A stretch of DNA of 64,000 nt, taken from positions 77,712 through 141,711 of the forward strand of contig JAPHQU010000001.1 of NCBI GenBank assembly GCA_026195275.1, read 5' to 3'. The stretch's first letter is position 1. Every line of letters starts with the position of its first letter. The DNA comes from Minisyncoccota bacterium (lineage in GTDB: Bacteria > Patescibacteriota > Minisyncoccia > Phycocordibacterales > JABMNX01). Below the pieces are notes generated by a model. The model searched no databases, was not told where the DNA came from, and saw only the letters and a list, made by a program, of their open reading frames with translations. A program made the position numbers and the translations under genes. Of the stretch, positions 4,913-61,795 are shown in pieces.

Positions 4913-5242
4913 ATGCTTTACCGAATCGCAAAGTTGGTTATGACCAGCTACTCGATCATTGGGTCTCTTCTTGGGGCTCTCGTCGGATTCGTCATCTTTT
5001 TGGTGATCTACATCCTTCCGCTTCTCGCTTTCATCATCAACCTTTGCTGGACGCCAGTCATCGCTATCCGTGCATTCGGGCGTCTCGGGAAATATGGGGT
5101 TCCCTTTGGGGAAACATGGCGCAACGAGATCCGCGAGACCAAGAAAGCTTGGCGGGACGTCGTTGAAGGCTTCCATTTCATCTTTTGCGAAGCTCCGCAA
5201 AACATCTTCGACAATCTCCGCCGCACGCTCAGTGCTGCCTAG
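4913..5242 (+). CDS. hypothetical small membrane protein
   Basis: 109 aa, RBS GAGGAAAA 5 nt upstream of ATG, two TM helices; followed by bidirectional terminator. Confidence 0.5.
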   Translation: MLYRIAKLVMTSYSIIGSLLGALVGFVIFLVIYILPLLAFIINLCWTPVIAIRAFGRLGKYGVPFGETWRNEIRETKKAWRDVVEGFHFIFCEAPQNIFDNLRRTLSAA

Positions 5243-5255
5243 CCGGCGACAACGT

Positions 5256-5290
5256 AAAAGGGCCAGCATCCGCTGGCCCTTTCTTTTGTT
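5256..5290. terminator. bidirectional intrinsic terminator GGGCCAGC-ATCC-GCTGGCCC + TTTCTTTTG
   Basis: perfect 8-bp GC stem between convergent orf4913 and ftsH. Confidence 0.6.
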
Positions 5291-5293
5291 TGC

Positions 5294-7282
5294 CTATTCG
5301 CTGTGTTCGATATCCTCTTTTTTCTTCGGGGTGATGCCGTTTGCGATGAGGAGTTTTTCAAATTCATCGCGTTCAAGCGTCTCTACCTTAACGAGCTCCT
5401 GCGCGATCGCGTCGAGTGCACCGCGGTGTTTGGTGAGGATGTCCTCTGCCTTCTTATACGCATCGTCAATTATTTTGTGCACCTCGGCATCGATCTCCGC
5501 TGAGACCTTCTCGGAGTACTCTTTTCCGTCGATACCGGAGCCCATGAGCGCGCGACCACCCTCTCCCTCAAGCGCGACCGGCCCGATCTTATCTGACATA
5601 CCGTATTTGGTCACCATGTTGCGCGCGAGCGCAGTGAGCACCTGGAGGTCATTCGATGGACCAGTCGTCACATCATCAAAAACCATCTGCTCAGCGATGT
5701 ACCCACCAAGCGTCGTCGCTATATCATCGAGAAACTCTTTCTTTGACTGCATCCTCCGCTCATCAAACGGGAGCTTGAGTGTGTAGCCTGCAGCGCGACC
5801 ACGCGAGATGATCGAGATCTTGTGTACCGGGTCAGCGTACGGCAACACGCTTGAGACAAGTGCGTGCCCCGCTTCATGGTACGCGGTGATCTCCTTTTCT
5901 TTTGTATTCAAAACATGACTCTTGCGCTCTGGGCCGAGCATCACCTTCTCGATTGCGCGAATGAGGTCGTACTGAGTCACCTTCTTGCGATTCTCACGTG
6001 CCGCCAAAATCGCACCTTCGTTCATGAGTGAGTAGAGGTCGGCCCCCGAGAAACCAGGCGTACGCTCGGCGATCACGGTAAGGTCAACGTCTGAGTAGAG
6101 TGGCTTCTTGCGCGCGTGGATCTTGAGGATTGCTTCACGGTCAGAGCGGTCCGGCAGGTCAACAGTCACCCGGCGGTCAAATCGCCCCGGGCGAAGGAGT
6201 GCAGGGTCAAGGACGTCCGGGCGGTTGGTCGCCGCCATCACGATCACCTTTTCATTCGGCTCAAATCCATCCATCTCCACAAGGATCTGGTTGAGCGTCT
6301 GCTCGCGCTCGTCATTACCACCCCCGACTCCTGTGCCACGCACACGCCCCACTGCATCAATCTCGTCGACAAAGATGATCGCCGGGGCGGACTGCTTCGC
6401 GAGCTTGAAGAGATCGCGTACACGAGATGCTCCAACGCCGACGAACATCTCGACGAACTCTGAACCGGAGATCGAAAAGAACGGCACGCCAGCTTCACCT
6501 GCGACCGCGCGCGCGAGCAAGGTCTTCCCGGTTCCCGGTGCACCCATGAGGATAATCCCCTTCGGGATTTGCGCGCCAATCGCGATAAACTTCTTTGGGT
6601 TCTTAAGAAAATCAACAATCTCAACAAGTTCTTCTTTCGCTTCCTTTGCACCGGCAACATCTTTAAACGTTACTTTCTGGCTCTGGTCATTCGGGTCAAT
6701 GATGCGCGCCTTTGATTGCCCGAATGAGAATGCTTGCATGCCGGCGCCTTTCACCTGCCGTGAGAGGTACCATATGAAGAATGCGATGAGGAATATTGGG
6801 ATGAGGAAAGGCGCAAGTGAAAAGAACCAGAATTTAAACCCACTCGGGTCTTTCACTTCAACACTCACCTCTCCCAACTCATCGTGAGTGACGCCATAGT
6901 TGGCAAGCGTCTCGGTGAGTGCGGTATTAGCTTCTTTCTTCGACTCTTTCTCAGTAGGCTCCTCACCCTCCTCGGCAACATACGTGGCTACCACTCTCTC
7001 GCCACTTACCACAATCGAAGAGACTTCTCCTGCCTGTATATCTCGCGCAAGCTCAGAGATAGGGATGTTTTTGGTCCCCTCTTCGCGACCAACAATGAAT
7101 GAGTATGTGCTCACCAAAATAAGGAGGAGGAGGAGTGTGCTGAGCAGGTTCGCCCAGAACTGCTGACGTTCAGGGAGTTTTGGCATCTCGGACGAAGGCT
7201 TCTTCTCACCCTTCTTCGGATTTTGTCCGGTGTTTTTTGCGGCTTTTTTCTTACCGCTGTGATTTTTTCCAAAGAGGTCCAT
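5294..7282 (-). CDS. ftsH: ATP-dependent zinc metalloprotease FtsH (Lys-rich N-terminal extension)
   Basis: ORF 5294..7444; start set at ATG 7282 ([13 protein letters not shown]...) preceded by TATAAT 12 nt upstream; TM helices, AAA Walker [12 protein letters not shown], Zn site HEAGHA. Confidence 0.9.
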
Positions 7283-7832: not shown

Positions 7833-8242
7833 GGGGATGATCGGCTTCGACAATGAAGATATCTTATCTATGTGCAAGGGAGCAGACCAGAACTGCTTAA
7901 AAAGCTGGAACACAATACGTGCAAAGAAATCTGCACTTGGAATGCTTTCACCTTTCCAGATGAAAAACTTCCAGTTCGCTTACGCACAAGCCTAAGCGAC
8001 CATCAGTACGTTTGACGTCCGATATGACGACACTGGTGTAACCCCAATCGGTCTAGGGTGCGCGATTGCCTCGACGCACATCTGAAACTAAGAGACTCGA
8101 CGTGATGTGATTTTGTTTGTTTCAAACACACCACGTTCAAACAGATCCTGATCTTGTATCTGGGTCAAAAAGACAAACTAGCCCTCTGTAGAATCATTTA
8201 TGAGACCTTTCTTGGACGCGGATTCGATTTCCGCCATCTCCA
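7833..8242 (+). ncRNA. ssrA: transfer-messenger RNA (tmRNA, SsrA); tag reading frame ends ...KNFQFAYAQA*
   Basis: 5' GGGGAUGAUCGGCUUCGAC matches tmRNA 5' consensus; 3' end GCGGA-UUCGAUU-UCCGC-CAUCUCC-A gives T arm and acceptor pairing with 5' GGGGAUG including a G3-U70 pair; internal ORF in frame ending GCT TAC GCA CAA GCC TAA (7978..7995); gene directly downstream of smpB. Confidence 0.8.
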
Positions 8243-8310
8243 CATTTATACCAATATGGACCAAAACAGACCGCTTTGTACCAATATGTACAGGTGGTTT
8301 TTTGGTACTC

Positions 8311-13393: not shown

Positions 13394-14806
13394 CTAAAAG
13401 AGCTCAACGCGACTTCCCTTTTCAGGGACGGTGGCATTCACGCCAAGTTCATCACGCAAACGCTGTGTGAGAAAGAGTGACGCCTTTGGCTCCCCCATCA
13501 CGACAAATGCCTGCTTGAGTGTGTCTTTTGCGTCAGCAACAAAGTCGATGAGGTGGTCGGAGTCTTTGTGCGCAGAAAAACCGTCGATAGCGCGCACCTC
13601 GGCACGCACAAAAACTTTATCACCGTAGATCGTTACCTCCTTTGCCCCCTCTCTGAGTCGTCTACCAAGCGTCCCGGCACCCTGGTAGCCAATGAAGAGT
13701 AGCGTGTTCTTCGAGTCAGAGAGAATGTGCTTCTCATGCTCGAGTACACGCCCCCCAACCGACATCCCCGAACCGGCAATGATGATCTTCGGACCCGGCG
13801 TCTTCATAATGACTCTTGACTCGGGGACAGTGCGTGTCTTCTTAAAAAGTGGAAACTGGAAGATGTTGTCTCCTTCTCTAATTTCCTTTCTTACCTCATC
13901 TTTAAAATCATCGGAATAACGGGTATATATATCCGTCGCGCGTATCGCAAGCGGCGAATCAAGAAACACAGGGATTTCAGGTACAACCCCATCCTCAATA
14001 AGATTATTGAGAAAATAGAGAAGGACCTGCGTCCGATCAAGCGAGAATGCAGGAATGAGCAATGTTCCTTTCCGAGAGATCGTATCCTTAATAGCTTCTA
14101 CAAGGAGCCCCTCCCGATCATCTTTCCCTTCGTGATTACGGTCACCATAGACACTCTCCATCACCAAGTGTGTTGCTCCTTTAATACTCTCTGTGTCCGG
14201 AAGAAGTGGTGATGGGGAGTTGCCAAGATCTCCAGTAAAGACTATCTTCTTTCCGTCGTAAGCAAATTCAAGTATTGCTGAGCCAAGGATGTGCCCGGCA
14301 TCCTTTAGGGTTACGGAGAAACCTTGCGGAAACGATTGTTCTTCGTGATACCTGATTGTTTCCCACTGATTGAGCGCACGGTCGATGTCTTCTCTCTCAT
14401 ACATAATCGGCTTACCTCGCTCACGCGCCTCATGCGCAAGAATCGTAAGCGCATCTTCGAACATCACCCTTGCCAAGTCGCGCGTTGCCGGTGTTGAGTA
14501 TATCTTCCCACGGAAGCCGTCGCGCACAAGCTTAGGGATACGCCCAATATGGTCCGCGTGTGCGTGCGTCACAAAGAGTATGTCGATTGATGCCGGATCA
14601 TACGGAAACGGGTCGTAGTTGCAATCGTGACAGTACTGCTCGCCTTGCACGAACCCACAGTCAACGAGAATCCGCGCGTCCTCAAACTCAAAGAGAAAGT
14701 TTGCCCCGGTCACGCCACCGGCGCCGCCGTAAAACGTGATCGCTGCTTTATTCACTTCTGTATCTTTATTTTGTTCCATATTTTGTTCCATTTTGGTTAC
14801 TACCAT
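13394..14806 (-). CDS. MBL-fold / beta-CASP family ribonuclease (RNase J/CPSF73-like)
   Basis: 470 aa; ITFYGGAGGVTGANFLFE...ILVDCG...THAHADHIG metallo-beta-lactamase motifs plus beta-CASP C-terminal region. Confidence 0.8.
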   Translation of the reverse strand: MVVTKMEQNMEQNKDTEVNKAAITFYGGAGGVTGANFLFEFEDARILVDCGFVQGEQYCHDCNYDPFPYDPASIDILFVTHAHADHIGRIPKLVRDGFRGKIYSTPATRDLARVMFEDALTILAHEARERGKPIMYEREDIDRALNQWETIRYHEEQSFPQGFSVTLKDAGHILGSAILEFAYDGKKIVFTGDLGNSPSPLLPDTESIKGATHLVMESVYGDRNHEGKDDREGLLVEAIKDTISRKGTLLIPAFSLDRTQVLLYFLNNLIEDGVVPEIPVFLDSPLAIRATDIYTRYSDDFKDEVRKEIREGDNIFQFPLFKKTRTVPESRVIMKTPGPKIIIAGSGMSVGGRVLEHEKHILSDSKNTLLFIGYQGAGTLGRRLREGAKEVTIYGDKVFVRAEVRAIDGFSAHKDSDHLIDFVADAKDTLKQAFVVMGEPKASLFLTQRLRDELGVNATVPEKGSRVELF

Positions 14807-15185
14807 ATATGGTAGTAAAAAATATTACCGCGAAAATCGTACCGAGTGCATCCATAGCAAGATCGGTGGTGGTGTCGAGTACATAATTGTTCTCAATCGG
14901 GATCCCCGCAAGCACTTCAAACACCTCCCACCCGACCCCAACAATAACAATCGCCCCTCCGGCAACAAGGAGCGTCTTGGTCAGACTACGTGCGACGCAG
15001 ATGTAACCAGACTCAAAGAAAAGCCAGAGCGATGCGAGCCCAACAAGAAGCCCGCCAAGGAAATGCATCATGGTATCAAACCACGAGTACGTCCAGTAGA
15101 GATAGAACTCAATTGCCGACGCATGGAGCACCGCGATCATCACAAGTAGCATGAACCAGAGTATGAAGAGTGGATGTTTGTGCAT
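14766..15185 (-). CDS. hypothetical membrane protein (4 TM; possibly DUF457/YdjM-like)
   Basis: ATG at 15185 preceded by TATACT 6 nt upstream (leaderless-type); overlaps downstream gene by up to 41 nt. Confidence 0.45.
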   Translation of the reverse strand: MHKHPLFILWFMLLVMIAVLHASAIEFYLYWTYSWFDTMMHFLGGLLVGLASLWLFFESGYICVARSLTKTLLVAGGAIVIVGVGWEVFEVLAGIPIENNYVLDTTTDLAMDALGTIFAVIFFTTIYGSNQNGTKYGTK

Positions 15186-15533: not shown

Positions 15534-16139
15534 CTACTCTAAAATCCCATCAATATTAACGTCGTAGAGGATCTCGTCTGAAATGAGGCGGTAGCTGATA
15601 AGCTCACCCTCCACAAACCAGTGCTTGATCTCATTCTCTGCCTCCTCAGCTGAGCCTGATGCATGCACAATGTTACGCACCGCACGCCCATCGCCGTCTG
15701 CCATGCGGTATGAATCGAGGACGTAGTCACCGCGAATGGTCCCAACGTCTGACGAGAGTGGTTCCGTCGAGCCAACAATCTTGCGTACCAACTCTGCTGC
15801 GTGCGCTCCCTGGAGCACCATGAGCACGACCGGCCCTGAGGTCATGTACTTCTTGAGGTTCTCAAGTATCTTCGCAGTGACTTCAAGCGGGTCTTCTGAA
15901 GGTGGAGTGAGCCCTTTCTTCTTGTATGACTCGATAGCTTTCTCGCCGGTAACTGTGCGCCACGATGGATCAAGAGTATAGTGCGCCTCTACTTGACCTG
16001 CCTCAGGAACAGCCATCTTAAGCGCCACCATTTTGAGTCCGACACGTTCAAAACGTGAAATAACTTCTCCAATGAGTGAGCGCTGTACGCCATCCGGTTT
16101 GATAATAACGAGTGTTCTCTCTTTGCTGTGTTTTGACAT
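15534..16139 (-). CDS. ndk: nucleoside diphosphate kinase, long form (about 200 aa with insertions)
   Basis: ERTLVIIKPDGVQR and NIVHASGSAEEAENEIKHWF match NDK signatures incl. catalytic His; TATACT 6 nt upstream of ATG. Confidence 0.8.
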   Translation of the reverse strand: MSKHSKERTLVIIKPDGVQRSLIGEVISRFERVGLKMVALKMAVPEAGQVEAHYTLDPSWRTVTGEKAIESYKKKGLTPPSEDPLEVTAKILENLKKYMTSGPVVLMVLQGAHAAELVRKIVGSTEPLSSDVGTIRGDYVLDSYRMADGDGRAVRNIVHASGSAEEAENEIKHWFVEGELISYRLISDEILYDVNIDGILE

Positions 16140-17295: not shown

Positions 17296-17892
17296 TTAGT
17301 CGATATTGAGTGCGGCACGGATGTCTCTCTGCACATCTTCGACCGACTGATCGCCATTGATATCATGGACATAATACCCATCCTTTTCGCGGAGATACTC
17401 AATCGACGGGAGTACTTCTGTACTATACCAAGTGAGACGTTTGGAAACGTACTCGTCGTCAAGGTCGTCTTTTCTTCCGCGATTCCGTAAACGGTCACGG
17501 CAAATATCTTCAGGGACATCGAGAATAATCGCGTGCATCTGTGGCGCACCGAAGAATTCGAGTGCTTCTTCAAGCATCTTAAATTCCGGCAGGAGGCGCA
17601 CCCCATCGAGCATGAGGAATTCTTTCCCTGTATAGTTCGCAATAAGAAAACTCGAAAGAAGCCAAATTGGAATAAAAGATGGCAAGAGATTCCCCTCATT
17701 GATGATACCTGCCGCACGCTGTGCTATTGCACCCGGATGCTCTTTTATGAATGAGCGAATTTCTTCACCACCGTCAAAAGAGAGCATTGGTGTCTGTGGG
17801 TACGAAGTCTCAATATGCGCTTTGAGCACATCTGCCTGAGTACCCTTGCCAGCTCCTGAGGGTCCAAAGAAGATAATTGTTTTGGGTTGCAT
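17296..17892 (-). CDS. adk: adenylate kinase
   Basis: P-loop GPSGAGKGTQA; TATACT 5 nt upstream of ATG. Confidence 0.9.
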   Translation of the reverse strand: MQPKTIIFFGPSGAGKGTQADVLKAHIETSYPQTPMLSFDGGEEIRSFIKEHPGAIAQRAAGIINEGNLLPSFIPIWLLSSFLIANYTGKEFLMLDGVRLLPEFKMLEEALEFFGAPQMHAIILDVPEDICRDRLRNRGRKDDLDDEYVSKRLTWYSTEVLPSIEYLREKDGYYVHDINGDQSVEDVQRDIRAALNID

Positions 17893-19386: not shown

Positions 19387-19836
19387 TTATGCAATCGATC
19401 CTCCCGCCTTCTCAATCGCCACCTTCGCAGCCTCGGAGAAAAGACACTTAGAAACTGATACCTTCTTGCTGATCTCACCCTTTGCGAGAATCTTTACTAC
19501 AGGGAGTCGTCCACCCGCCTGGGTAATCACACCATGTGTGTGAAGTGTCTCCGGTGTCACCTGCTCACCACTCTTATAGAGCGCGTTAATGGTGCTGAGG
19601 TTTACCGGTGTTGGTTTAACCACGCTGCTGTTGACGGTGCGCCCTCGGTTCTTGCCGTGCCCACGGAGTTTGGGGAGCTTCTTGATGATGTCGCGCATCT
19701 CTGGTCGAAGAGAGTGCCCTGCACGCGCGGTCTGTCCCTTCATACCACGCCCCGATGTTTTACCACGGAGCCCCCCACGACCGACACGCTTTTTGGTCTG
19801 TCGCTTTGTCTTTGGTTGTAGTTCGTTAAGCTGCAT
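19387..19836 (-). CDS. rplO: 50S ribosomal protein L15
   Basis: start at MQLNELQPKTKRQ... (ATG 19836), 11 nt after rpsE stop; no rpmD (L30) between rpsE and rplO. Confidence 0.9.
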   Translation of the reverse strand: MQLNELQPKTKRQTKKRVGRGGLRGKTSGRGMKGQTARAGHSLRPEMRDIIKKLPKLRGHGKNRGRTVNSSVVKPTPVNLSTINALYKSGEQVTPETLHTHGVITQAGGRLPVVKILAKGEISKKVSVSKCLFSEAAKVAIEKAGGSIA

Positions 19837-19846
19837 GATGGTTGGA

Positions 19847-20404
19847 TTATGCCTGAAGATCTTGTAATGCCTTAATTGCTGCTTGAGCATTATTAAGCTT
19901 GTTCTTGCTTCGCGAGAAAATCTTCGCCGTCACATCTTTGATCCCGGCGAGTTCAAGTACAGTACGCACTGAACTTCCCGCCACCAAACCACGCCCGGGA
20001 GACGGGATGATCTGAATCTGTGATGCGCCATACTTGGCGGACACATCATGAGGGATACTCATCTCTTTGGTGGTACGCACGGTGATCATGTTTCGCTTTG
20101 CCTGGCGCGTCGCCTTCTCGATCGCAAGCGCAGTGTCACTTGCTTTTCCGACACCAACACCCACACGCCCTTTTTTGTCGCCAAGCACCATGGTAACCGA
20201 GAAGCTGAAGCGGCGACCTCCAGCAACAACACGGACTACTCGACGAATTGACACGATCTTCTGTATGAACTCGGAACGTGCGCGATCTGCTCGACGGACG
20301 ATCCTGCGCGGATTCTTCTTAAAGGTATTCTTCGCAGGATTTACATCAACGCCGGATGTCGCCTGGGTATCGTTTTTTTCTATTGTTGCGGTTTCTTTTG
20401 TCAT
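19847..20404 (-). CDS. rpsE: 30S ribosomal protein S5
   Basis: VVAGGRRFSFSVTMVLGDKKGRVGVGVGKA core S5 motif. Confidence 0.9.
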   Translation of the reverse strand: MTKETATIEKNDTQATSGVDVNPAKNTFKKNPRRIVRRADRARSEFIQKIVSIRRVVRVVAGGRRFSFSVTMVLGDKKGRVGVGVGKASDTALAIEKATRQAKRNMITVRTTKEMSIPHDVSAKYGASQIQIIPSPGRGLVAGSSVRTVLELAGIKDVTAKIFSRSKNKLNNAQAAIKALQDLQA

Positions 20405-21335: not shown

Positions 21336-21731
21336 CTACCAGATCTTAAAGAGTGCTTCTCCACCAACACGCTCTTTGCGCGCTTCTTCGTCAGTAAGCA
21401 CTCCTTTCGGGGTTGAGATGATAAGCGACCCTTTTCCGTATTTCACCGGATTAATCTCATTTGCTCCAACATACAAACGACGGCCAGGGCGTGATACGCG
21501 CTTGATGCCGTGAAGTGCGGACTTGCCGGCTTTGTCGTAACGAAGCCCAACCTCGAGCACTTTCTGTGCACTCTTACCTTTCGCTTCCACTGATGTAAGG
21601 TAGCCTTTTTGCTTGAGCACATCGGCAATCGCCTGGCGGAACTTTGAGTATGGCGCAGAGACCACATCTTTCCCAACGGCAGACGCGTTTTTAATTCGTA
21701 TGATGAAATCTCCTACTGGGTCTCCTACCAT
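21336..21731 (-). CDS. rpsH: 30S ribosomal protein S8
   Basis: [16 protein letters not shown]... typical S8. Confidence 0.9.
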
Positions 21732-21910
21732 GATGCTTTCTTAATACCGGGGATATTCCCTTCGTTTGCGAGTTCGCGGAAGCAAACCCGACAGAGGTCG
21801 AAGTCGCGCATGTAGCCGTGTGCGCGGCCACATCGAAAACATCGCCGTACTACGCGGGATTTGAACTTCGGTGTCTTCTCTGATCGTGCGATTACTGATT
21901 TCTTTGCCAT
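21725..21910 (-). CDS. rpsN: 30S ribosomal protein S14 type Z (Zn-ribbon, C4)
   Basis: [46 protein letters not shown]; 61 aa from ATG 21910. Confidence 0.9.
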
Positions 21911-21952
21911 ATTTAGATATAGTCGCAAGCGATAGCGCGCTTACTAGATCTT

Positions 21953-22017
21953 ACACCCCGTGAAATGCATCACTTTGGTGATGCACCCGCGCCCTGCGGT
22001 GCGGGATTTCACTGGGG
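21953..22017 (-). repeat. structured three-helix element, copy A1 (42 nt upstream of rpsN start on the transcribed strand)
   Basis: outer stem CCCCGTGAAAT / ATTTCAC(T)GGGG enclosing hairpins GCATCAC-TTTG-GTGATGC and CCCGCGCC-CTGC-GGTGCGGG; homologous to 35038..35104 and 22039..22099. Confidence 0.6.
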
Positions 22018-22038
22018 TTCGGTGATTCTATACTCCGA

Positions 22039-22099
22039 CCCCGATGAAATCTTCCGCCTTAGGGCGGAAGCGTGTCGCTTCGCGACACATCTCACGGGG
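22039..22099. repeat. structured three-helix element, copy A2 (opposite orientation to A1)
   Basis: CCCCGATGAAAT-[CTTCCGCC-TTAG-GGCGGAAG]-[GTGTCGC-TTC-GCGACAC]-ATCTCACGGGG; internal hairpin sequences nearly identical to copy B at 35038..35104. Confidence 0.6.
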
Positions 22100-22215
22100 T
22101 TAGTTCAGCATTGTCGTCCCGACTGAGATGTCGCGACTCGGTGCTTCACTAAAAAAGCGTTCTGTGACGCTCGGCCTATAGTATCAGGCTGACCGTCCAA
22201 AGTCAATTCTACCCT

Positions 22216-22758
22216 TTAACTCTCCTCTTTTTGAAGTGGGAAGCCGAGATTCTCAAGGAGTGCCGCTGCTTCTTCCTTCGTGCGGGCGGTGGTGGTGATC
22301 GTCACCGCGAACCCAAAGACATCGCGAAGCTCCTCGTCCGGTGTCTCGGGGAAGATTGTGTGCTCCTTGATGCCGATGGTGATGTTGCCCATCTCATCGA
22401 GCGCTGAGCGTTTGATGCCACGGAAGTCGCGGGTGCGCGGAAGCGCGATGTGAATAAGCTTATCCAGAAAATCGTTCATGCGCGCACCACGGAGTGTTAC
22501 CTGGTATCCGACAATGTCTCCCTCGCGAAGTTTGAAGGTTGCGATAGATTTCTTCGCCGGTCGCGCTGAAGGCTTCTGTCCTGTGATCTTCATGAGACGA
22601 TCTTGGATCACCTGGACCTTATTCTTATCTTTGAGTGACCCGGTACCAACTGAGACGACCACTTTCTGAATACGCGGCGATTGGAACACGTTTGTATATC
22701 CAAAACGCTCCTTGATTTCTGAAAAGATGTTCTTTTGTCTTTCTTTTGTTACTGACAT
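22216..22758 (-). CDS. rplE: 50S ribosomal protein L5
   Basis: typical L5 N-terminus and length 180 aa. Confidence 0.9.
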   Translation of the reverse strand: MSVTKERQKNIFSEIKERFGYTNVFQSPRIQKVVVSVGTGSLKDKNKVQVIQDRLMKITGQKPSARPAKKSIATFKLREGDIVGYQVTLRGARMNDFLDKLIHIALPRTRDFRGIKRSALDEMGNITIGIKEHTIFPETPDEELRDVFGFAVTITTTARTKEEAAALLENLGFPLQKEES

Positions 22759-30696: not shown

Positions 30697-30911
30697 GATA
30701 ATTTTCTTTTAATGACTTAGGAATTCCCAGAAGTAAGCGCGCGAGAACGATAACTTATTTCCAAGAACTACCAATGACTAATAAATGAACGGGCAGAACC
30801 CGCACAAAAAAACACGCGTTAATGCGTACCGAACATACTACAGAGGGCTAGTGTGAAAGTCAAGAAAAAAGAAGCTGAAAATCATTAACTTTAGAAAGTA
30901 AGATAATCGCG

Positions 30912-30963: not shown

Positions 30964-33156
<2,193 letters not shown>

Positions 33157-34928: not shown

Positions 34929-35037
34929 ATATAGTCTATAGCTTATCGTCTTTACCGTGGTACGTAAATGGCGATTTGCATAAAACGAAGTAAACTGGTA
35001 TATTCTGTAGCACTTGATTGAGTGGTGGTGTGAAGAT

Positions 35038-35104
35038 CACCCCAGTGGAATCCTCCGCAGTAGTGGCGGAGGTGTGCCGCCAAGGCGACACATTTCACGG
35101 GGTG
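35038..35104 (+). repeat. structured three-helix element, copy B, 40 nt upstream of rpmB start codon
   Basis: CACCCCAGTGGAAT-[CCTCCGC-AGTAGTG-GCGGAGG]-[TGTGCCGCC-AAG-GCGACACA]-ATTTCACGGGGTG; same architecture and outer-stem sequence as 21953..22017 (reverse complement) and internal hairpins nearly identical to 22039..22099. Confidence 0.6.
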
Positions 35105-35144
35105 TCAGACCTTCTCATTCGCTCCGCTCATAACAAGGTCTAAC

Positions 35145-35387
35145 ATGGCAAAAGAATGTCCAATCACAAAGAAGACCTCTAAGGTTGCTGGCGGCTACAG
35201 CAACCGTACTCGTGCTACCCAATTCAACCCAACCGGCAAAAAGCGTCGCCAGGTGAACCTCCAGAAAAAGACTATTTTCGTCCCTGAGATTGATAAGAAA
35301 GTGACTGTCAAAGTATCAACCAAAGGAATCCGCACGATCAACAAGAACGGCGCATACAAAACCCTCAAGAAAGCAGGACTAATTTAG
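35145..35387 (+). CDS. rpmB: 50S ribosomal protein L28
   Basis: MAKECPITKKTSKVAGGYSNRTRATQFNPTGKKRRQVNL...VSTKGIRTINK matches L28. Confidence 0.85.
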   Translation: MAKECPITKKTSKVAGGYSNRTRATQFNPTGKKRRQVNLQKKTIFVPEIDKKVTVKVSTKGIRTINKNGAYKTLKKAGLI

Positions 35388-35420: not shown

Positions 35421-35458
35421 AAACCCCGGCGCCATAGGCGCCGGGGTTTATCTTTTGG
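35421..35458. terminator. bidirectional terminator ACCCCGGCGCC-ATA-GGCGCCGGGGT + TTATCTTTTGG
   Basis: 11-bp perfect GC stem after rpmB, overlapping stop of convergent ComEC-MBL gene. Confidence 0.6.
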
Positions 35459-36314
35459 TGACTGAAAAGCCGTCTGATTCAAAGAGAATTGTTCCGACAT
35501 CCGCTGTGTTCACAGTTTCAATTCCAAGCGCATTGAAAAGACCTATCACTTCTTTATGCGGATGTCCGTAACGATTATCCTCCCCAGCAGAGATGACCGC
35601 AACTTGCGGGCTAACCGCGCGTACAAATGACTCATCACTCGATGTTTTTGAACCATGATGTCCTGCTTTGAGTACGTCGCTCTCCAAACTCCTGCTGTTG
35701 AGGTAGACAAGATACCGCTCAATAGTCTTCTGTGCGTCCCCGGTGAGCATAAACTCTGTCTCGCCGTACACAATACGGATGATGACCGAGCCAGAGTTCG
35801 TCTCAAGATGAGCGACATCACGGTCAGGGAAAAGTATGTCAGCGTACACCCCGCTCACCTCGTCGAGGACAACACGCTGTCCGCGGCGCGCAAGCGCCGC
35901 GGTGACATTGCTCCTTGAGACGGTCTTCTGCAGCTCTTCATATACTGCTGTGTCGTTGAATACACCCGAGTGGAGATATTGAGAGACTTCGTAGCGCGAA
36001 AGCACCTCAATCAGCCCGGCGATGTGGTCTTTGTCGGGATGTGTTGCGAGAACTACATCGATTGACCGGTCGCCCCACGGCATGACTTGTGAGAGTTCAC
36101 GGAGTACCCCCGTGTTCGACCCGCCATCAACGAGCATTTGGTTGCCATTTGGCGCTTCGATGTATATTGCATCGCCTTGCCCAACATCAAGGAACGCAAC
36201 AGTGAGCACCCCCACCCGATCTGTTGCCGCAAGCGTTGCAGACCAAATAAAAAAGTTGAAAAGAATGAATATCAGAACAACGAGTGAGCGTGAGTAGAGC
36301 TGTATAGACTTCAT
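35448..36314 (-). CDS. ComEC/Rec2-type metallo-beta-lactamase domain protein (stand-alone, N-terminal membrane anchor)
   Basis: VDGGSN...VVLATHPDKDHIAGL...MLTGD...VLKAGHHGSKTSS...AVISAG as in the C-terminal MBL domain of ComEC; separate gene from channel domain at 37355..38860. Confidence 0.7.
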   Translation of the reverse strand: MKSIQLYSRSLVVLIFILFNFFIWSATLAATDRVGVLTVAFLDVGQGDAIYIEAPNGNQMLVDGGSNTGVLRELSQVMPWGDRSIDVVLATHPDKDHIAGLIEVLSRYEVSQYLHSGVFNDTAVYEELQKTVSRSNVTAALARRGQRVVLDEVSGVYADILFPDRDVAHLETNSGSVIIRIVYGETEFMLTGDAQKTIERYLVYLNSRSLESDVLKAGHHGSKTSSDESFVRAVSPQVAVISAGEDNRYGHPHKEVIGLFNALGIETVNTADVGTILFESDGFSVTKR

Positions 36315-38868: not shown

Positions 38869-39279
38869 CTACTCCCCGCGGTCCATAGCTTCATTCGCGA
38901 GTCGGTCCGCTTCTGCGTTCTCCGCGCGCGGTATATGCGTGAAGGTAACATGTGGCATGTCTTTGAGCATCTCTTGGATCCGGTTGTATTGATCGCGAAG
39001 TGTGGGCATCTTAATACGGTAGTTACCATTGAGCTGCTCGACCACGAGTTGGCTATCAAGCTTAAAAAGTATCTTTTCCTCTGCAAATCCGAGATCTTTC
39101 GCGGTATGGAGTCCAAGGATAACCGCTTCATACTCCGCCCAGTTGTTTGTCTGCACACCAAGAAACCGCGAGGTCTCTTCAATAACCTTCCCGTCATCCC
39201 CCACAATAACAACACCGGCTCCAGCCGGCCCTGGGTTATTTCGCGCACCTCCGTCGGTATAGATCGTGATGTGTTTCAT
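38869..39279 (-). CDS. rnhA: ribonuclease HI
   Basis: start MKHITIYTDGGARNNPGPAG (ATG 39279); DDE residues in YTDGG, WAEYEA, LDSQLV, HIPRAENAEADRLA. Confidence 0.9.
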   Translation of the reverse strand: MKHITIYTDGGARNNPGPAGAGVVIVGDDGKVIEETSRFLGVQTNNWAEYEAVILGLHTAKDLGFAEEKILFKLDSQLVVEQLNGNYRIKMPTLRDQYNRIQEMLKDMPHVTFTHIPRAENAEADRLANEAMDRGE

Positions 39280-60607: not shown

Positions 60608-61795
60608 ATGCCACTTTTCCCACTCATCCAGGTCATTGTAAGCCGTGTTGTTATTGGTATCATCGCAATCCTCGCCACACTTGGACTCGGATCGGTTTCT
60701 GAACCAATCGCCACAAACACCACGAATCAAACCGACGCACCTCAGGAAGTGGCCACTGAAGAGCCTGAGGCACCTCAGGAGGCCGAGAAGGATCCACAGA
60801 AGACGGTTGAGACTCCTGAAGAGCCTACTGCGAAAGAAGGGACCCCAACCACTACCCCACTTGAGACCGTGCAGGGACTCACAGAAGAGCCGGATGAAGC
60901 AATAATTACAGAAACCGCAACCTCGACCCACAAAGAGCCGCTCACTTTCGCAGAGATTAACACCAACACCACAGAAGCACTGGTTAACATCCTCTGCTCG
61001 CAAAATGTTGCAACAGCAGTAACGCCGATCACCGGAAGCGGTGTCATTATCGACCCGCGCGGAGTGATCATCACCAACGCACATGTCGCTCAGTTCTTTC
61101 TGCTTAAAGACTACCCCGTCGAAGACGCACTCTCGTGCATCATCCGCACCGGAAGCCCCGCACGCCCCATGTACACCGCAGAGCTTCTTTACATACCGCC
61201 AATCTGGATCTCAGAGCACGCCGAGGACATTACCGATAGCGAGCCGACTGGGACCGGCGAGAATGACTATGCTTTCTTGCGCATTACCGGCCGCACCAGC
61301 CCTGATGCAGGAGGCCTCCCCACCTCGTCCTCTTACTTACCAATGGATGCCGAAGCAACGATCGAGACAGGTGCACCAGTGCTTGTAGCAGGGTATCCTG
61401 CAGGCTTCCTTGGCGGTATCTCCGTCCAAAAAGACCTCTACTCAGTCTCGAGCATCACAACAATTGGGGAGCGCTTTACTTTTAACACAAACACAATAGA
61501 TCTCTTCTCGACCGGCGGCACTGTTGTCTCGCAAGGCGGCTCTTCCGGTGGTGCGGTCGTCTCAGCAAAGGAGAAGCTCGTCGGTGTTATCGTAACCAGC
61601 ACTAATGGCGACACGACCGCCGAACGTGACCTGCGCGCGATCAGTGTTGGACACATCAACCGCAGCCTTTTTGAGTACAGCAACACCACAATAGATGCGC
61701 TTCTCTTCGGAGATGTAGCACTTCGTGCCCGCCTCTTCAATATCGGCACCGCGCCGGCGCTGACCGATATCTTGGTGAACTCACTCAATAATTGA
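60608..61795 (+). CDS. trypsin-like (S1/S1C) serine protease with N-terminal TM anchor and Pro/Thr/Glu-rich linker
   Basis: ATG 60608 with RBS AAGGA; catalytic triad contexts TNAHV, NDYAFLRI, GGSSGGAVV. Confidence 0.75.
   Translation: MPLFPLIQVIVSRVVIGIIAILATLGLGSVSEPIATNTTNQTDAPQEVATEEPEAPQEAEKDPQKTVETPEEPTAKEGTPTTTPLETVQGLTEEPDEAIITETATSTHKEPLTFAEINTNTTEALVNILCSQNVATAVTPITGSGVIIDPRGVIITNAHVAQFFLLKDYPVEDALSCIIRTGSPARPMYTAELLYIPPIWISEHAEDITDSEPTGTGENDYAFLRITGRTSPDAGGLPTSSSYLPMDAEATIETGAPVLVAGYPAGFLGGISVQKDLYSVSSITTIGERFTFNTNTIDLFSTGGTVVSQGGSSGGAVVSAKEKLVGVIVTSTNGDTTAERDLRAISVGHINRSLFEYSNTTIDALLFGDVALRARLFNIGTAPALTDILVNSLNN

Follow-up and report, generated by a model that had tools for sequence, protein, structure and literature searches.

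The ribosomal protein genes rplE and rpsN of a Minisyncoccota bacterium (assembly GCA_026195275.1, contig JAPHQU010000001.1) are separated by a gap that holds two oppositely oriented structured elements, in a ribosomal protein block where, as the layout of open reading frames (ORFs) bears out, the other junctions are short. What are these elements, and what is their relation to the gene that follows them? We addressed this within a 64,000-nucleotide (nt) stretch of the contig (positions 77,712 to 141,711 of the forward strand; hereafter the window). A first-pass annotation made from the sequence alone had reported the two elements and a third copy, and all three, together with the sequence of 21929–22215, are as it described. 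We found that the window carries three ~62-nt three-way-junction ("Y") elements, A1, A2, and A3, and that A1 and A3 belong to a larger unit that this annotation had overlooked, in which a 42-nt hairpin (HP2) abuts the ATG and has an upstream partner sequence (P1a). Our reading, which we hold tentatively, is that the Y element is a dispersed repeat, similar to repetitive extragenic palindromes (REPs), and forms the apical domain of a generic leader in which competition between HP2 and a P1a helix (P1) would set access to the start codon. The features of main concern are:

21955–22018, minus strand: Y element A1, in canonical sense on the transcribed strand; apical domain of the rpsN leader cassette
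22038–22100, plus strand: Y element A2, its canonical sense antisense to the operon; best seen as an inverted orphan copy without a cassette of its own
35039–35103, plus strand: Y element A3, in canonical sense in the rpmB 5′ leader; its stems span 35040–35102
21911–21954, minus strand: HP2 of the rpsN leader, AGAUCUAGU / ACUAUAUCU, its 3′ strand ending 4 nt before the ATG
35104–35144, plus strand: HP2 of the rpmB leader, AGACCUU / AAGGUCU with loop CUCAUUCGCUCCGCUCAUAAC (profile hidden Markov model [HMM], E = 0.003)
22024–22041, minus strand: P1a of the rpsN leader, GGGUCGGAGUAUAGA, a predicted partner of the HP2 loop
35018–35037, plus strand: P1a of the rpmB leader, UUGAGUGGUGGUGUGAAGAU, likewise a predicted partner of the HP2 loop (duplex of −15.9 kcal/mol)

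The canonical sense of the element (R) was defined as A-CCCC-A-GUGAAAU, hairpin, hairpin, AUUUCACGGGG-U, and lies on the minus strand in A1 and on the plus strand in A2 and A3. The opposite orientation of A1 and A2 claimed earlier is shown by the placement of a single bulged base; the two stand head to head, 19 nt apart. The outer stem of A1 pairs CCCCGTGAAAT (21956–21966) with ATTTCAC(T)GGGG (22006–22017), and its inner hairpins are GCATCAC-TTTG-GTGATGC and CCCGCGCC-CTGC-GGTGCGGG. In A2, CCCCG(A)TGAAAT (22039–22050) pairs with ATCTCACGGGG (22089–22099), the inner hairpins are TTCCGCC-TTAG-GGCGGAA and GTGTCGC-TTC-GCGACAC, and neither an HP2 nor a gene lies on the canonical-sense side. Each copy has a fold energy of −36 to −40 kcal/mol and forms a three-way junction on either strand, with 0 to 2 unpaired nt at the junction and the conservation sitting in the Watson–Crick stems. 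The Z-scores ranged from −4.4 to −7.2, and none of 200 shuffles folded as well as the Y copies. In the predicted leader fold, A2 can also pair with A1, giving a five-hairpin multiway junction (z = −9.3). Because a structure-based scan of the whole window returned exactly A1, A2, and A3, while matches to the bare 11-mer with up to two mismatches were at chance level (19 found, 17 expected), what is nonrandom is the paired architecture of the element and not the 11-mer word.

The hairpin that follows the Y element is equally regular in its position. HP2 (typical sequence UGAUGAUUUUUAUAGUCGCUUCGCUCCUUAAAAAUCAAUC) was found in ~40 loci in one fixed sense, with its 3′ strand ending 0 to 4 nt before the ATG. 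In 43 pattern hits an ORF started 34 to 49 nt past the element, always in the same sense; exclusion of five hits by eye left 38 accepted cassettes with the start 37 to 46 nt past the element. The canonical cassette is ~150 nt long and consists of the purine-rich P1a (of the form GAGYGRAGYGAG), a linker of 0 to 29 nt (mostly ≤14), the Y element, one U, HP2, and the AUG. The A1–rpsN and A3–rpmB leaders both have the full layout, with an element-to-start distance of 42 nt in each. The cassette is also an aid to annotation, pinpointing the true rpsN start codon, the ATG at 21908–21910, from which the product begins MAKKS like the S14 orthologue in locus L078. The earlier distance of 42 nt from A1 to the start agrees with ATG 21910; the gap itself, previously put at 287 nt, is 305 nt, as the TTG at 21928 is not the rpsN start. 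The HP2 of the rpmB leader stops 3 nt short of ATG 35145, and A3 was the sole match when the window was searched for further loop-like sites. The HP2 of the rpsN leader (−10.9 kcal/mol) is a divergent family member that lies within a covariance model match and was missed by the HP2 profile HMM alone. A generic scan for hairpins before an ATG in the absence of a Y element was too noisy and the profile HMM was used instead; its matches were almost exclusively beside Y-type domains, including those with compensated outer-stem variants.

P1a is complementary to the HP2 loop, and the complementarity continues into the 5′ strand of HP2. The P1 helix and the stem of HP2 compete for one strand and form mutually exclusive helices at the start codon, the arrangement of a riboswitch expression platform. 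P1 duplexes average −13.45 kcal/mol in the transcribed sense against −9.66 kcal/mol on the opposite strand (Wilcoxon p = 2e-5), with the transcribed sense better in 29 of 37 cases, while shuffled upstream sequence used as P1a gives −8.2 ± 3.0 kcal/mol. G·U pairs make up 17% of P1, the sole part of the cassette with an RNA-type signature. Roughly one in three of the 38 minimum-energy folds of whole leaders contained P1, the rpmB leader with A3 among them (structures read by eye), and forcing the last 12 nt and the AUG open cost ≤5.9 kcal/mol in 38 of 38 leaders. The P1a of the rpsN leader falls in the A2–A1 interval and runs into the end of A2.

The earlier statement that the helices of the two copies differ in sequence and yet stay paired was also borne out across loci. 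An alignment of full elements with MAFFT was inconsistent with the structure and was replaced by a covariance model (R1) built from five co-linear seeds; such a model had been suggested by the first-pass annotation, and R1 indeed finds cassettes elsewhere with strong covariation. It recovered 47 cassettes at E < 1e-6, both window cassettes included (A1, 21908–22018 on the minus strand, 41.2 bits, E ~5e-7; A3, 35039–35147 on the plus strand, 45.9 bits, E ~4e-8), and gave A2 on the plus strand only 19.4 bits (E ~0.2). Among the 47 matches, in an alignment fitted to R1 and with the outer stem fixed by the search pattern, 95.7% of the cells at paired positions were paired, compared with 71.4% in shuffles, and both sides changed in 26 of 34 pairs. 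The covariation score was 0.553 vs. 0.119 in shuffled data (0 of 500 reached the observed value) and 0.055 to 0.084 in slid controls. Compensations at the base of HP2 are GAU/AUC (9), GGC/GCC (4), GGU/ACC (2), and GAC/GUC (1), and those of the outer stem include UGUUAAAU/AUUUAACA and GUCAAAU/AUUUGAC. While the covariation is strong, the earlier conclusion that it is the signature of a selected RNA is weaker than it may seem, as a DNA-level repeat would give the same pattern and compensatory palindromes alone are no proof of selection at the RNA level.

The element is widespread. A scan of reference genomes, one per species, with the exact pattern CCCCGTGARAT-N30-55-ATTYCAYYGGGG gave at least 120 stretches, mostly in Patescibacteria and with several copies per genome, while we estimate a chance expectation of <10. 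The Patescibacteria among the matches listed are Kaiser-, Wolfe-, Taylor-, Yonath-, Nomura-, Moran-, and Magasanikbacteria, Paceibacterota, Saccharibacteria, and Peribacteria, and one Kaiserbacteria metagenome-assembled genome (MAG) had matches on at least six contigs. Most copies are intergenic. In Patescibacteria, the interior always consists of two hairpins, whose sequence tracks the base composition of the genome and is wholly different between genomes. Where the two flanking genes share a direction, the R sense agrees with it in 35 cases and opposes it in 7 (hand count; p = 1.5e-5). A second class of copies follows directly after a stop codon, also in the R sense, with 0 nt between the two in L025 and L052. 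Head-to-head pairs like A2/A1 are also present in L008, L031, and L049, while most copies are single.

The genes that follow the cassette belong to more than 20 unrelated families. Identified by N-terminal sequence and length, the downstream genes related to translation encode S12 (four cases), S19 (two), S14 (two), L28 (three), L2, L3, S11, and EF-Tu, and others encode NusA, Fpg (four), ParB, FtsA, MraZ, GlmS, YebC, ComEC, exonuclease III, and further proteins. Translation genes are enriched, with 16 of the 39 identified downstream genes against an assumed background of 8% (p ~2e-8), and to that extent the earlier link to ribosomal proteins holds. On the other hand, occurrence at loci other than those of ribosomal proteins, which the first-pass annotation had named as evidence against its proposal, is what we found (Fpg, ParB, FtsA, MraZ, GlmS, NusA, and ComEC), and the presence of the same element before unrelated genes, after stop codons, and several times per genome contradicts a role specific to rpsN or ribosomal proteins. 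The recurrent neighbors are the str and S10 operons and not transposases. The rpmB cassette is common to the window, L056, and L111, and the rpsN cassette to the window and L078.

Under our preferred reading, A1, A2, and A3 would be copies of a dispersed palindromic repeat common in Patescibacteria and transcribed within untranslated regions of mRNAs. When the HP2 5′ strand and loop pair with the HP2 3′ strand, the ~12 nt before the AUG would be buried; when they pair with P1a instead, a long helix P1 would enclose the Y element and leave the start region single stranded, A/U-rich, and without a Shine–Dalgarno sequence. The Y element would act as a stable clamp keeping P1a beside HP2. We infer transcription of the cassette, the switch itself, its trigger, and an effect on translation or stability. 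The open form would be the default and would also bury the mRNA 5′ end in a helix, which probably affects mRNA stability too; HP2 would shut on the start codon when P1a is occupied by a ribosome on the upstream gene, by RNA processing, or by a bound factor. Shine–Dalgarno-like sequences precede only 16 of the window's 76 ORFs, so that the decisive feature is plausibly a start region that is open and A/U-rich.

Several observations weigh against this reading. A2 and six other copies are antisense to their flanking genes. In the four helices (the outer stem, both inner hairpins, and the HP2 stem), counted in an alignment fitted to the model and with the outer stem fixed by the search pattern, there are 1,436 Watson–Crick, 17 G·U, and 16 A·C pairs; with no excess of wobble pairs and fold energies favoring neither strand, the helices fit the behavior of DNA-level palindromes. 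Copies within one genome are near-identical in Y and diverged in HP2, which suggests that the Y part spreads or is homogenized on its own; in the Kaiserbacteria MAG, the diverged HP2 hairpins carry compensatory changes beside near-identical Y elements. The specificity of P1 is modest (self −13.3 vs. nonself −11.2 kcal/mol, median rank 13 of 38), and in the rpsN leader P1 is weak (−12.2 kcal/mol, weaker than at many loci) and HP2 is divergent. By our own geometric argument, fully formed P1 and HP2 would be sterically incompatible, given connecting strands of 1 to 4 nt. Finally, the canonical Y element is absent from 336 kb around rplE in 80 relatives, which are the metagenomic rplE loci closest by L5 (L121–L200; 63 to 76% identity). 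The expectation of the first-pass annotation that relatives have a homologous structure thus held for relatives elsewhere and failed at all 80 of these loci.

Much of this could also be explained if the Y element were a selfish or mobile DNA palindrome, similar to REPs and bacterial interspersed mosaic elements (BIMEs) or to miniature inverted-repeat transposable elements (MITEs), that has no RNA function of its own, multiplies as DNA, and piles up wherever intergenic sequence tolerates it, the leader before HP2 being one such place. A1 and A2 would then be a head-to-head cluster of the BIME type. The strand symmetry, the near-identity of Y beside differing HP2 hairpins, and the lack of the element in the syntenic region of the 80 relatives argue for such an origin, as do the alternating-orientation pairs in the window and three other loci, the palindromes nested in or beside HP2 (L047, L051, L016, L065), and the use of the same arms in nested or tandem REP-like arrays (Desulfobacterota and L062). 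We nevertheless consider it rather unlikely; against it weigh the bias of orientation with transcription, the exact placement one nt from HP2 and 37 to 46 nt from the ATG, and the retention of the cassette before orthologous rpmB genes despite turnover of the hairpin sequences. No target-site duplication is visible, only two matches were found among 2.9 million viral contigs, and no Y1 transposase was found in the 785 neighboring ORFs, although this is a weak test. A processing signal, in which the P1 duplex stacked on the outer stem of Y is cut by RNase III or a similar enzyme, appears improbable. The cut would separate cistrons, leaving a stable structure upstream and freeing a short, unstructured leader downstream. 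P1 has the form for it in some loci, with 12 to 18 contiguous pairs or ~20 with the HP2 5′ strand (L044, L093, L050, L021), and it encloses a compact domain like the stems of rRNA processing; many copies also lie between ribosomal protein cistrons (before S19, L2, L3, S11, and S14) as well as before nusA. Such sites are classic RNase III contexts in Escherichia coli and phage T7. However, P1 is short or weak in many copies, A1 included, and many others are apparently at the very 5′ end of the transcript with no cistron to separate.

We give still less weight to the idea that the HP2 3′ half is a BoxA-type site for NusB and S10 (NusE), which would tie the output of translation genes to how much free S10 is present, through antitermination or translational repression as at suhB. 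The main HP2 subfamily, GCUCCUUAAAA and GCUCGUUAAGA, agrees at 10 of 11 positions with the BoxA consensus GYTCTTTAANA (PMC5725501), the candidate site is 8 to 12 nt from the AUG, and the downstream genes are rich in translation functions, with nusA among them. Other subfamilies match less well (8 of 11 in A3 and absent in A1, in our own alignment), and both alternative conformations leave the candidate site base-paired. We estimate the probability of a conserved 40-nt motif coming this close to an 11-mer as 1-in-100 to 1-in-250. Neither the window nor any of the 201 loci contained an rRNA gene for comparison. The number of sites would also differ, with 0 to 7 putative BoxA sites per genome reported in gamma-proteobacteria (PMC5725501). 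The least credible explanation, one to which we assign next to no probability, is that of an autoregulatory leader specific to rpsN and sensing S14, S8, or zinc, as proposed by the first-pass annotation. An element does lie in the rpsN leader both here and in L078, and rpmB, another gene for a zinc-ribbon-type ribosomal protein, has a copy, but the idea is largely refuted by the distribution of the element over more than 20 gene families. Also against it, other sequences fill this gap in the 80 closest L5 relatives, and the conserved nucleotides lie in a Watson–Crick stem and not in an apparent mimic of an rRNA-binding site.

A bolder form of our preferred reading, which we regard as unlikely, is that P1a-Y-HP2-AUG is a phylum-wide riboregulator placing dozens of housekeeping and translation genes per Patescibacteria genome under one switchable leader and one global signal, with the Y module spread or homogenized at the DNA level. 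If so, a single signal would determine how much translation machinery is made in bacteria where Shine–Dalgarno initiation is largely missing, and a mobile repeat would wire genes into a regulon. Candidate signals would be free 30S subunits on the Shine–Dalgarno-like P1a, NusB–S10 on the BoxA-like HP2 strand, or an RNase. Much of bacterial diversity belongs to the Patescibacteria, and very little is known of their gene regulation; if the cassette functions as proposed, it would be a searchable sequence module at the start of many core genes, part dispersed repeat and part structured leader, and provide a handle on how mRNAs without Shine–Dalgarno sequences are initiated or stabilized, how ribosomal protein operons are split into separate units, and how repeats rewire gene expression.

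Among known systems, the Y element is closest to the REP/BIME repeats of enterobacteria and pseudomonads, which are short, multicopy extragenic palindromes that are transcribed within operons or 3′ untranslated regions, form clusters of alternating orientation, have an extrahelical base in the stem, are near-identical within and divergent between genomes, and have a known role in stabilizing mRNA. Like them, it is a short, imperfect extragenic palindrome with many copies (3 in 64 kb) and alternating clusters. It differs in folding into a three-way junction with two variable inner hairpins and not into a single hairpin, in lacking a GTAG-type 5′ tetranucleotide (some copies have a TTTA/TAAA flank), in its fixed position one nt from a second hairpin that abuts the start codon, in its Patescibacteria host, and in that no REP-associated tyrosine transposase (RAYT) was found among the same 785 neighboring ORFs, by the same weak test. 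The Correia (Neisseria), BOX (Streptococcus pneumoniae), and MIRU (Mycobacterium) repeats are likewise structured repeats upstream of genes or between cistrons that alter expression, for example through RNase III sites or overlapping stop and start codons; the Y element shares no sequence similarity with them, has no terminal inverted repeat with a target-site duplication, and sits within two conserved helices that compete with each other. A MITE was rejected, as the inverted arms are present but the flanks, judged by eye, carry no direct duplication (A1, ...TTACA\|CCCC...GGGG\|TTCGG). With ribosomal protein autoregulatory leaders such as the S8 site of spc, the cassette has in common a structured RNA directly upstream of ribosomal protein starts, and with alternative-pairing leaders a helix that hides the start region and a competitor that frees it; unlike the former, one cassette serves many unrelated genes within one genome, its conserved positions are Watson–Crick stem pairs, and it is not kept at the orthologous rpsN locus. 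The resemblance to the BoxA/Nus sites of rRNA leaders and E. coli suhB lies in an 11-nt GCUC-N-UUAA-N-A near the start of translation-related genes, whereas the HP2 match is imperfect, dependent on the subfamily, and buried in helices, and would occur at many genes per genome.

Other candidates were rejected as well. A riboswitch or ligand-sensing leader is at odds with the heterogeneous gene set and the lack of a conserved unpaired core, and hammerhead and twister-sister ribozymes with the almost fully paired junction, the lack of a CUGANGA/GAAA core, and the lack of a ribozyme match in Rfam. Integron attC sites were likewise rejected on the anatomy, as the junction is fully paired and a GTTRRRY motif is lacking. 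TIGR arrays have 36-nt units, box C/D motifs, and two variable spacers (PMC12045711); the array in L062 also has a period of 36 nt, but its self-complementary arms are conserved, only 9 nt vary, and it has neither box C/D motifs nor dual spacers. A promoter within the cassette was dismissed for want of a −35 hexamer at a workable spacing and of conservation in the −10-like hexamer, and an intrinsic terminator because the U run begins 7 nt past the stem. Rfam 15 at gathering thresholds matched only the tmRNA and three tRNAs in the whole window, and permissive Rfam scans of 21700–22400 and 34950–35250 gave chance-level microRNA matches far below threshold. A full-text literature search for the arm sequences returned coincidental primer matches only, and keyword searches on Patescibacteria repeats and RNA motifs returned no description of the Y element. 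As far as we could find, both the Y repeat and the combination of a mobile-looking module with helix competition at a start codon are thus undescribed.

The genes and upstream signals of the two host loci are:

22216–22758, minus strand: rplE (L5; Pfam PF00281 and PF00673), the neighbor upstream of rpsN
21725–21910, minus strand: rpsN (S14, short Cys-containing form, 61 aa; Pfam PF00253, E = 7.7e-23)
21336–21731, minus strand: rpsH (S8; ORF and Pfam)
35145–35387, plus strand: rpmB (L28; Pfam PF00830)
22178–22206, minus strand: sigma-70-like promoter TTGACT-17-TACTAT (with TG), a consensus match and the predicted rpsN promoter
22146–22172, minus strand: promoter-proximal hairpin GAGCGUCACAGAACGCUU followed by the U run UUUUAGUGAA, at the predicted 5′ end of the rpsN transcript
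34975–35004, plus strand: promoter-like site for rpmB, TTGCAT-17-TATATT (sequence match)

The predicted rpsN promoter begins 10 nt past the rplE stop codon and has a counterpart in relatives, where TTGACT-17-TAnTAT precedes a 5′ hairpin with a U run behind it, as in 22206–22146 of the window; the order of promoter, hairpin, and U run recurs in L121, L125, L131, and L137. Because these three features are common to several relatives, rpsN is predicted to head its own transcription unit, and the earlier description of the elements as inserted inside the spc operon needs revision, the gap having a promoter-like site and a 5′ hairpin of its own that are kept in relatives. Among the 44 loci of relatives with both genes located, the gap ranges from 79 to >2,000 nt and often holds a terminator and sometimes whole inserted genes. 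The junction is a rearrangement hotspot in these relatives (L121–L200), the longest gaps exceeding 2,300 nt. P1a, a different stem domain of the form ACCC...GGGU, HP2, and an AUG were found before rplF (L125) and rpsH (L130).

The tuf leader (30697–30870, minus strand) and the rpsN leader (22146–22206, minus strand) open alike with TTGACT-17-TAGTAT or TACTAT, and in both a short GC hairpin and a run of 6 to 7 U follow within a few nt of the promoter. The hairpin and U run could be a promoter-proximal attenuator or a 5′ stabilizer. Many genes of the window have a TATACT-like −10 box only 6 to 7 nt from the ATG, often preceded by TTGAC at a spacing of 17 nt (e.g., ttgactttcaactttatacttactctATG). 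Such boxes precede 14766–15185, 15534–16139, 17296–17892, 30964–33156, 35448–36314, and 38869–39279 on the minus strand and 60608–61795 on the plus strand, and suggest that leaderless mRNAs are widespread in the window.

The arms of the Y element also occur outside the cassette. In Desulfobacterota and one Liptonbacteria locus, the same 11/12-nt arms form nested or tandem REP-like arrays, none with HP2 (L006, L062, L077, L106, L114, L117, and others), some with a 36-nt period and TAAAC or CAGGC flanks; that different phyla have identical arms suggests horizontal spread or a binding protein in common. In the two viral matches, contigs of IMG/VR (L201, 3622–3677; L202, 4799–4854), the Y element is followed by CAGGGAGGAUUAUU-AUG, and a classical Shine–Dalgarno sequence takes the place of HP2. 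Inverted repeats are inserted in the HP2 loop or between Y and HP2 in L047 (2300–2443), L016 (3475–3596), L065 (1804–1926), and L051, where the cassette has a 148-nt spacer. Nested palindromes thus appear to collect preferentially in the cassette. In L045 (1832–1972), a bulge-less Y element has HP2-like hairpins on both strands and resembles a bidirectional cassette.

A ~900-nt noncoding region upstream of nusA in L007 contains three tandem hairpins with A/U stems (5150–5400). Their loops on the plus strand, UGAGUGAAACGA and ACGAGCAUAGCG, are P1a-like and hence complementary to HP2 loops. They matched no Rfam family, and related hairpins lie in the rplE–rpsN gap of L176, L180, and L185; hairpins of this type could be a trans-acting RNA or a decoy. 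The window as a whole is Parcubacteria-like: its EF-Tu shares ~82% identity with those of L093 and L076, and rpmD (L30) was not found between rpsE and rplO (19847–20404 and 19387–19890), its absence being typical of Patescibacteria. The tmRNA gene lies at 7833–8245 (101 bits).

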